A stretch of DNA of 64,000 bases, taken from contig JBBQNK010000005.1 of NCBI GenBank assembly GCA_038329865.1, positions 1-64,000 on the forward strand. The letters are read 5' to 3'. Both the position numbers and the translations under genes were made by a program. This stretch comes from Tepidisphaerales bacterium (lineage in GTDB: Bacteria > Planctomycetota > Phycisphaerae > Tepidisphaerales > Tepidisphaeraceae). The notes under the pieces were generated by a model. The model was not told the origin of the DNA. It searched no databases and saw nothing but the letters and a program-made list of their open reading frames with translations. Shown here piece after piece: positions 25,785 through 28,327 of the stretch (position 1 is the first letter of the stretch; every line of letters starts with the position of its first letter).

Positions 25785-28327
25785 CTACACGTCCAGATTC
25801 TTCACTTCCAGCGCATGCTCCTCAATAAACTGTCGACGCCTCTCCACATCCTCGCCCATCAGCACAGAAAACATCCGCTCCGCTTCCGCGGCGTCGTGCA
25901 GCGTGACGCGCAGCAGCACGCGCTTGTTCGCATCAAGCGTGGTTTCCCACAGTTGCTCGGCGTTCATCTCGCCCAGGCCCTTGAAGCGTTTGACCTCGAT
26001 GCCGTGCTTACCCAGGCCGTGGATCGCGGGGAGAAGTTGCGCGACGCCGGCGACGTCGACGGTTTCTGACTCCTGCTTCAGGGCGTACTTGGTTTTGAGT
26101 TTTTCGCCGGTGACGGATTCTTCCTGCGTGAGGAAGTAATCCTCGATCGAGAGGTCGTACGTGAGCAGTTGCGCGAAGATTTTTTCCAGATCCTTCACCT
26201 CGTGCAGCTCGCTGTTTTTCTGCAGGCGCGAGCCGGTTTCCTTCTTTTTCGGCGTGCCGTTGGTTTCGGCGGGCTCGCCGGGGGCGATCTCGGCCAGCAG
26301 TTGGTGCTCGGCCAAGACCTGGTCGCGGTCGGCAGCGTTGTGGAGCAGAAAATCCTGCCCATCGATGACGACGTGGAACTTGGGGAGATGGCCCTGTAGA
26401 TCGCGCTTGCCGAGGAACTCGGCGAAGTCGATCCCGCGTCGGCGGACGACCGTAAGTAGTTCTTCCAACCGCCCGAGCAAGTCGACGACAATTTTGAGAT
26501 CATCGCCGGCGATGGTGCGAATGACATGGTCCGCGTCGTCGCGGATTTCCAGCGACGTGCTCTCCAGCCCGAGCGTCGTGTAGATCTGCCGCATCGAGCG
26601 CTCGTTCAGCACGTACTCGTCCTTCTTCTTCCGCGTGACCATGTACAGCGGCGGCTGGGCGACGTACACCCGGCCGGCGCGGAGCAGCTCCGTCATGTGG
26701 CGGAAGAAAAACGTCAGCAGCAGCGTGCGAATGTGCGAGCCGTCCACGTCGGCGTCGGTCATGATGATGATCTTGCCGTAGCGGCGCTTGGCCAGGTCAA
26801 AATCCTCGCGTATGCCGCAGCCGAGCGCGCTGATGATCGCGCGGATTTCCTCGTGGCCTAGCATTTTCACAAGGTTGGCTTTTTCGACGTTCAGCAGCTT
26901 GCCGCGGAGCGCCAGGATCGCCTGCACGTTGCTGTCGCGCCCCTGCTTGGCCGAACCACCGGCGGAGTCACCTTCGACGAGGAACAGTTCCGTCTCTTCG
27001 TTCGATTTGCTGCGGCAATCCGCCAGCTTGCCGGGCAAACTTCCGCCTTCAAGCGAATTTTTGCGACGCGTAAGCTCGCGCGCCTTGCGGGCCGCCTCGC
27101 GCGCCTCCGCCGCCAGCATGCCCTTTTCGAATATCAGCCGGGCTTCCTTCGGATTTTCTTCCAGGAACGCGCCGAGCCGCTCTGTTACCGCGGATTGCAC
27201 GAACGATTCCACTTCCGGGTTCAGCAGCTTGTCCTTCGTCTGCGATTCAAACGACGGCTCGGAGAGTTTCACGCTGATCACCGCGATCAGCCCTTCGCGC
27301 AGATCGTCACCGCTCGGCCGCGTGTCCTTGATCCACCCCGCGGCTTCCGCGCGGCGGTTGATCGTGCCGGTGAGCGCCGTCTTAAACCCGCTCAAATGCG
27401 TGCCGCCGTCGTGGTTGTTGATGTTATTCGCGAAGCTGAGCAGCGTTTCGTTGTAGCCGTCGTTGTACTGCATCGCGATCTCAACGTGCAGGCGCGTGCC
27501 GGTGTCCTGCTTCTCGAAATAGATCACGTCGTGCATCGTGGTCTTGCTCTCGTTGAGATATTTCACGTACGCGATCAGGCCGTCATCGAATTTGAAAACG
27601 TCGTGCTTGTTCACGCGCTCATCGGCGAAAATAATCTCCACGCCTTTATTGAGGTACGACAATTCGCGCAGCCGCTGCGCGAGCGTTTCGTGAATGAAGT
27701 TGACGTCGGGGAAGAGCGTCGGATCAGGCTTGAAGGTCACGCGCGTGCCGGTCTTGCTCGCTTTGCCGGTGACCTGAAGATCCTGGCTCTTTCGGCCGCG
27801 CTCGAATTCCATGTGATAGACATTGCCGTTGCGGTTGACTTCAACTTCCAGCCATTCGGAAACGAAGTTGACCACCGAAGCGCCCACGCCGTGCAGCCCG
27901 CCGGAGGTTTGTACGCGCTGTCGTCGTCGTGCTCGAACTTTCCGCCGGTGGCAAGACTTGCAAAGACCATTTCCACCGCGGGCAATCCGGTATCCGGATG
28001 CACATCGACCGGGATGCCGCGGCCGTCGTCGCTCACCGTGCAGCTGCCGTCGGGATTGATCCGCACTTCCACATGCTGGGCGTGCCCGGCCAGCGCTTCG
28101 TCGATGGAATTGTCGACGATTTCATACACCAGGTGATGCAGCCCGCGCGGGTTGTACCCACCGATGTACATGCCCGGGCGCGTGCGCACGTGATCGACGT
28201 CGTCGAGCGACTTGATCATGGATGCGTTGTATTCGCCGGTGACTCGGGAATTGCCCTGTTCGGACGGCTCTGCGAGTTGTGTTTTTGGCGTTTTTTCGTT
28301 GGTTTCGGCGGACTTCGGATCGGACAT
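25785..28327 (-). CDS. gyrB: DNA gyrase subunit B, with an apparent -1 frameshift near 27904
   Basis: The N-terminal ATPase half (27737-28327) has [24 protein letters not shown]-type motifs: [31 protein letters not shown] and DDGRGIPVD. The Toprim/C-terminal half (25785-27887) has [14 protein letters not shown] and [12 protein letters not shown]. The two halves join only if one nucleotide is restored at tacaaa-cc-tccggcgggctgcacggcgtgggc, which would read [14 protein letters not shown]. Confidence 0.8.

Follow-up and report, generated by a model that had tools for sequence, protein, structure and literature searches.

The window, by which we mean the whole 64-kb stretch of DNA that was analysed, carries on its minus strand a gene for DNA gyrase subunit B (gyrB) whose reading frame is broken once, and, past the gyrB stop codon, a RAYT-like gene bracketed by two hairpins. 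The features of the locus are as follows.

25785..28327, minus strand: gyrB (DNA gyrase subunit B), with one frame break; 847 aa after one base is added
27908..28327, minus strand: N-terminal frame piece of gyrB, M1-K140, comprising a species-specific leader and the first part of the GHKL ATPase, the DDGRGIP motif included
27908..27910, minus strand: the lesion, AAA (TTT on the plus strand), one base short of the AAAA or AAGA of intact orthologues, placed by DNA alignment with the related contigs L001 and L002
25785..27908, minus strand: C-terminal frame piece of gyrB, T141 to the stop, comprising the ATP-lid SGGLHGVG, the rest of the GHKL fold, the transducer, Toprim and the GyrB C-terminal domain
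27737..27907, minus strand: out-of-frame tail of 56 codons after K140 (it begins PPAGCTAW), not a real coding product
25146..25769, minus strand: RAYT-like (IS200/Y1-type) gene, 207 aa, with a weak match to Pfam Y1_Tnp and a match under the cutoff to the NCBIfam REP-associated tyrosine transposase
25113..25142, no strand: REP-like hairpin at the end of the RAYT-like gene that faces away from gyrB, with the 18-nt perfect palindrome GTCCCGCTTCAGCGGGAC at 25124-25141
25744..25773, no strand: second REP-like hairpin, inverted relative to the first and about 20 nt past the gyrB stop, with the palindrome GTCCCGCTAAAGCGGGAC at 25745-25762

As assembled, gyrB is not one continuous frame, the interruption being at codon 140/141. 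Translation from the ATG at 28327 gives the leader and then canonical GyrB sequence as far as DDDSAYK140; from there onward it is nonsense until a stop at 27737, and it is the -1 frame that gives GyrB sequence from the break down to the stop at 25785. Across the break the minus strand reads GAC AGC GCG TAC AAA CCT CCG GCG GGC TGC. At 2543 nt the locus leaves a remainder of 2 when divided by 3, and a single ORF of 847 aa results if any one base is inserted after TACAAA. The earlier note had described gyrB as split by a single-nucleotide frameshift within 27880-27930; the length of the locus, the use of two frames and the one-base repair to an 847-aa ORF all bear this out, and the break, at 27908-27910, lies inside that interval. 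We use "repaired GyrB" below for the 847-aa protein obtained in this way.

When the repaired GyrB was searched against the window with tblastn, it returned two abutting HSPs that meet at 27893-27911, one at 28327..27893 in frame -1 (E = 5.6e-89) and the other at 27911..25788 in frame -3 (E = 0). The two pieces also share out the model TIGR01059 between them, the N-terminal piece matching positions 1-102 and the C-terminal piece positions 114-639, and each fragment, if left unrepaired, scores below the model cutoffs. The out-of-frame tail at 27737..27907 is without homology in the N-terminal frame; read in the other one, this stretch codes for conserved GyrB sequence.

The earlier note had placed an ATPase half in one frame and a Toprim half in the other, and this does not describe the split correctly. 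The break falls at residue 140 of 847, within the GHKL domain and not at a domain boundary; more precisely, it lies inside the ATP-binding fold directly before the ATP-lid box, which aligns at this point with the solved GyrB structures 6ENH and 1KIJ. The C-terminal frame offers no start codon before an internal GTG at 27887, which lies within the GLHG|VG box, so that SGGLHG of the ATP lid is missing from both of the unrepaired polypeptides.

The identity of the gene is clear from profile and protein searches. The repaired GyrB matches NF011501 end-to-end (positions 6-803 of 803) with 975.1 bits, above the cutoff of 796, and TIGR01059 with 877.8 bits, marginally under the cutoff of 882.4. It is GyrB and not ParE, since the GyrB models score 878-975 bits and two ParE models 727 and 563. 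Its Pfam domains, HATPase_c, DNA_gyraseB, Toprim and DNA_gyraseB_C, are those of its relatives. A search of 5.8 billion proteins returned the intact orthologues P0001, P0002 and P0003, which are 90%, 88% and 87% identical, together with many GyrB proteins from Tepidisphaeraceae MAGs at 70-78% identity. Where a close relative has a source name, that name is in every case gyrase B or DNA topoisomerase (ATP-hydrolyzing) subunit B. A scan of genome contigs with the repaired GyrB was swamped by universal motifs; among the matches listed, the best was 53% identical.

The contigs that bear P0001 and P0003 (L001 and L002, respectively) share the neighbourhood of gyrB with the window: genes for a TPR protein and PTPS lie upstream, and genes for a Band_7 protein and an M48 peptidase lie downstream. 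This conserved neighbourhood indicates that the gyrB of the window is the orthologous chromosomal copy. A tblastn search with the repaired protein detected no second gyrB or parE-like sequence within the 64-kb window.

The RAYT-like ORF occupies the 790-nt spacer between gyrB and the Band_7 gene. Its match to Pfam Y1_Tnp is weak (26.8 bits, cutoff 23), and its best NCBIfam match, NF047646 (REP-associated tyrosine transposase), reaches 62.3 bits with a cutoff of 80. It is bracketed by inverted 30-nt arms that are 90% complementary and contain an 18-nt perfect palindrome each; a pattern search for the palindrome in the 64-kb window yielded three matches, where 0.01 were expected, two of them exact and one with two mismatches. 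The spacer of L001 at this place holds an unrelated small ORF, and L002 has a paralogue of the RAYT-like gene elsewhere (53% identical). Rather than a classical IS, the element downstream of gyrB is a RAYT-like cassette. The earlier note had drawn attention to a mobile element immediately downstream. There is indeed a RAYT-like gene past the gyrB stop, but the description is overstated, as 2.1 kb separate the gene from the break and no connection between them is detectable. A causal link between the element and the break was considered and rejected in view of the element's position past the gyrB stop, of that distance and of its boundaries, which are its own hairpins.

Comparison with the intact orthologues locates the lesion to within a few bases. 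At the nucleotide level the gyrB of the window is 84% and 82% identical to the two intact orthologues. The window reads GCG TAC AA- ACC TCC GGC where L002 reads GCC TAC AAA ACG TCC GGC and L001 reads GCC TAC AAG ACT TCA GGC, and in the alignment TACAA-ACCTCC is matched to TACAAAACGTCC in L002 and to TACAAGACTTCA in L001. The break is the sole gap in gyrB that is not a multiple of three; the other gaps are in the variable leader and linker regions. The conserved block across the break was found in 111 of 120 aligned sequences, counting the repaired window protein, and the 19 closest relatives all have Thr141. The earlier note had proposed that one base added at TACAAA rebuilds a conserved block. 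The frame is restored, as proposed, but the block in this lineage has Thr (Y-K-T-S-G) and is not YKVSGG, which identifies the missing base as A (AAA ACC). The simplest reconstruction of the site would be TAC AAA ACC, one A having dropped out of a run of four.

No relative has a frameshift at this site, including those that are 87-90% identical. P0232 (61% coverage, about 141 aa) was examined as a possible same-site frameshift in another species and rejected: its low coverage is due to a different leader sequence, and its frame passes the site intact, to break 25 residues further on. Searches for an intact allele from the same species gave no matches in JGI metagenome contigs, either with a pattern spanning the junction, in which three or four As were allowed, or with a wobble-tolerant pattern for the species-specific leader. 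A protein search with GyrB residues 1-231 returned nothing more than 90% identical.

Apart from the break, gyrB is indistinguishable from a functional gene under purifying selection. The ratio dN/dS was calculated by the Nei-Gojobori method separately for the regions before and after the break. Before the break it is 0.13 against L001 and 0.11 against L002; after the break it is 0.08 and 0.12, respectively. For comparison, the value for the two intact genes of L001 and L002 is 0.11. The number of lineage-specific amino-acid changes in GyrB is 33 in the window, 26 in L001 and 62 in L002. We also examined near-invariant columns, defined by a conservation of 97% or more among the other sequences of the alignment. 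The repaired GyrB departs from the consensus at 3 of 357 such columns (S for A, A for T and L for I), and all three changes are conservative; the median number of deviations in the family is 2, and 38% of the relatives deviate at least as often. The signs expected of a decaying pseudogene, which are multiple lesions, a raised dN/dS and the loss of invariant residues, were all absent from gyrB. The implication of a single lesion in a gene on which selection is unrelaxed is that the deletion, if it is real, is evolutionarily brand new.

Nothing at the break is able to restore the frame in expression. The shift that would be needed is -1, with A27908 read twice after Lys140. The shift site, G TAC AAA C, contains no slippery heptamer of the form X XXY YYZ, and after a -1 slip the tRNA-Lys would face CAA. 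No Shine-Dalgarno-like GGAGG occurs in the 30 nt upstream of the site, and the 93 nt from the site onward show no sign of a downstream RNA structure, their folding energy being -30.6 kcal/mol and the mean for 200 shuffled sequences -30.8 (z = 0.05). Rfam gave nothing relevant at the site. Slippage by RNA polymerase takes an A/T tract of roughly 7-9 nt or more; there is no such long tract here, the A-run at the site being 3 nt. A full-text search of the literature found no paper on gyrB recoding, and what it retrieved were reviews and unrelated genome papers.

To judge the quality of the assembly we looked for other breaks in the window. Twelve syntenic genes align to their L001/L002 orthologues in tblastn as single, uninterrupted HSPs. 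A scan of the 64 kb by GC3 and ORF pairing flags gyrB and three neighbouring ORF pairs; those three are independent genes. GC3, ORF pairing, syntenic tblastn and end-to-end Pfam checks revealed no further same-strand frame switch in the 64 kb. Since gyrB is the sole break, the assembly is not grossly error-prone, which slightly weakens the case for an artefact. That a run of four As is no classic hard homopolymer also counts against an error.

Broken copies of gyrB are nonetheless a recurrent feature of related assemblies. A search with the 231 N-terminal residues, which span the junction, returned many N-terminal GyrB fragments on long contigs. These fragments are normal at first and then pass into Arg/Ser/Pro-rich out-of-frame tails, each from a different residue. 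Three related Phycisphaerae contigs illustrate the pattern.

L083 (contig_3887, 379 kb): 2 gyrB frameshifts
L084 (contig_212853_np1212, 96 kb): at least 5 gyrB frameshifts
L085 (contig_5192, 5.0 Mb): 3 gyrB frameshifts

The gyrB breaks in these contigs are at scattered positions. The lesions in conserved codons are all indels of 1-2 nt, and the frame pieces are 62-93% identical to intact GyrB. Several uncompensated frameshifts in an essential gene whose pieces remain conserved can only be consensus error. Judging from naming conventions, the names of the three contigs suggest the output of a long-read assembler or polisher. A further half-dozen or so broken gyrB fragments were found on contigs of 7.7-821 kb. 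Consensus indels that break up genes in genome and metagenome assemblies have been described (PMC9262707).

Taken together, these observations make it very probable that the gyrB frame break is a consensus error, that is, an indel arising in base-calling or in assembly and polishing. The metagenome contig would derive from a Tepidisphaeraceae-like planctomycete that is uncultivated. The organism's own gyrB is almost certainly intact and would read TAC AAA ACC TCC GGC (Y-K-T-S-G); of the four As in the run, one has presumably been lost in the assembled sequence. We infer that the real DNA does not have the deletion, because gyrase is essential, because the ATP-lid motif is lost from every product of the locus as it stands, and because breaks are frequent in related assemblies. 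The earlier note had likewise held a sequencing or assembly indel to be most likely, and that view is strengthened by the nature of the lesion, a one-nucleotide deletion in an A-run, by the purifying selection on the gene, by the synteny, by the lack of recoding signals and by the broken genes in related assemblies.

The deletion might instead be real and very recent, gyrB being either a fresh pseudogene that is tolerated because there is a second functional gyrB, or a defective allele present in a subpopulation. We consider this unlikely. It is, after all, what the sequence as given carries, and the window, with no other indel-type break, does not come from an obviously sloppy assembly. However, the locus is the syntenic, orthologous copy of the gene, and without a second lesion or any relaxation of selection the event would have to be extremely recent. 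Bacteria with a duplicate gyrB are uncommon, and the window has no second gyrB or parE-like sequence. As for an allele from a subpopulation, what a consensus assembly reports is the allele carried by most of the population, which should not be a lethal one.

If the deletion is real, the gene might also work in spite of it, either by recoding or as a functional split gene, and these two readings are jointly very improbable. Restoration of the frame in expression, by -1 ribosomal frameshifting or by the addition of an A through transcriptional slippage, has the geometry of a -1 shift in its favour: the 385 nt at 27737-28121 are open in both frames, so that a shift anywhere in that interval would avoid the stop. 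The site itself offers no heptamer, no GGAGG, no structure and no Rfam match, its A-run is 3 nt long and all the relatives are in frame there, all of which makes recoding a very remote prospect. As for a true split, in which residues 1-140 with their tail and residues 148-847 would reassemble into an active GyrB, the two ORFs do exist, and the C-terminal one has the GTG start at 27887. Yet the cut is inside the GHKL fold, SGGLHG of the ATP lid is encoded by neither polypeptide, the N-terminal piece would bear a 56-residue nonsense tail and no relative is arranged in this way at this site; we give this reading the least credence of all. The most far-reaching version of recoding is one in which the organism's only gyrB truly carries the deletion and GyrB is made by a signal-free -1 frameshift, or by insertion of an A at the RNA level, at TAC-AAA-C. 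It is highly improbable, and if true, such signal-free recoding would make gyrB the first essential type II topoisomerase to depend on recoding. The locus is of biological interest only if the reads bear out the deletion.

The practical consequences of the break are already apparent. P0004, a singleton in the public protein collection that comes from an NCBI contig of 138,421 bp, has 700 aa and is 100% identical to the C-terminal ORF from GTG 27887. The record is evidently that of the window itself, where a wrong gene call has already resulted from the frameshift. The expectation of the earlier note that automated annotation would be broken is thereby confirmed, as the public collection has only this artefactual 700-aa C-terminal ORF. 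GyrB is a universal single-copy marker, used in estimates of completeness and in phylogeny. The record merits a correction or a flag, with one A added at 27908-27910 on the minus strand once the reads have been checked. Frameshifts fragment gyrB in a noticeable share of the public Phycisphaerae contigs, which is a caution for marker-gene pipelines.

The locus can be compared with several known systems. Relative to the GyrB of Tepidisphaeraceae and other Phycisphaerae it has the same domains, 87-90% identity and the same neighbourhood, and differs in that the window ORF is interrupted at codon 140/141. It resembles programmed -1 frameshifting of the dnaX type in that a -1 shift is needed for the full-length product, but the gyrB site is without the heptamer, the upstream Shine-Dalgarno-like element, the downstream structure and the conservation in relatives. 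In contrast to rescue by transcriptional slippage at long poly(A), the site has no long A tract and is not conserved in relatives. The neighbouring gene, with its putative Y1/HUH-type domain, shares with RAYT/REP systems two inverted palindrome copies around the gene, but it falls under the NCBIfam equivalog cutoff, and exact copies of the palindrome number only two in the 64-kb window. There is also a likeness to the consensus-indel artefacts that are the subject of IDEEL-type tests and frameshift-aware polishing, which share with this locus a single-base homopolymer indel in a highly conserved, single-copy gene and two abutting ORFs with full homology. Unlike L083-L085, the window has one break in 64 kb, in a short run (A4 to A3), and this contraction is a mild instance of the class seen in those contigs.

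Frameshifted gyrB genes were found in public contigs of other Phycisphaerae, which we refer to as L083, L084 and L085:

L083 (ENA ERZ25039523, contig_3887), 6001-8606: gyrB with 2 frameshifts
L084 (ENA ERZ26871208, contig_212853_np1212), 6001-8757: gyrB with at least 5 frameshifts
L085 (ENA ERZ25039518, contig_5192), 6001-8490: gyrB with 3 frameshifts

The assemblies from which these contigs come seem to be in need of polishing, and any analysis of marker genes that uses them will be affected. The genes beside gyrB on L084 and L085 seem to be fragmented as well.

The GC content of the window is uniform (about 0.57-0.635 over positions 1-64000) and reveals no compositional island anywhere in it, the surroundings of the RAYT-like cassette included. 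No tRNA or tmRNA genes were found in the entire window. The features discussed below are:

22752-24995, minus strand: Band_7/SPFH gene, 747 aa
22743-24986, plus strand: ORF antisense to the Band_7/SPFH gene, 747 aa
25113-25773: RAYT-like cassette
25146-25769, minus strand: RAYT-like (IS200/Y1) gene
25124-25141 and 25745-25762: 18-nt perfect palindromes, GTCCCGCT(NN)AGCGGGAC, within REP-like hairpins
37538-38242, plus strand: 234-aa ORF adjoining a DUF2461 gene
63515-63532: GTCACGCTGAAGCGGGCC, a third, degenerate version of the REP-like palindrome with 2 mismatches

The antisense ORF, which has exactly the same length as the Band_7/SPFH gene, had no Pfam match. The corresponding frame is likewise open (657 aa, 64.5% identical) in the closest relative, L001, a contig with an intact gyrB. 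Most likely the antisense ORF is not a gene, but a shadow ORF that results from GC3-rich codon usage.

Two inverted REP-like hairpins flank the RAYT-like gene, one on each side, and the hairpin lying about 20 nt beyond the stop codon of gyrB could double as its terminator. The third palindrome copy falls within a large plus-strand ORF (60977-63652) and may be either a decayed REP or a chance match.

L002, a second relative with intact gyrB, carries a RAYT-like paralogue at the position that matches the 234-aa ORF of the window. No Y1 domain was seen in that ORF, and its sole match was a faint one (15.6 bits) to an OlsE hydroxylase model. Because an ORF in which no Y1 domain was seen occupies the site beside DUF2461 in the window, the RAYT-like genes are differently sited in the two genomes. 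The RAYT-like cassette of the window occupies the spacer between gyrB and Band_7, whereas the same spacer in L001 contains an unrelated 105-aa ORF.
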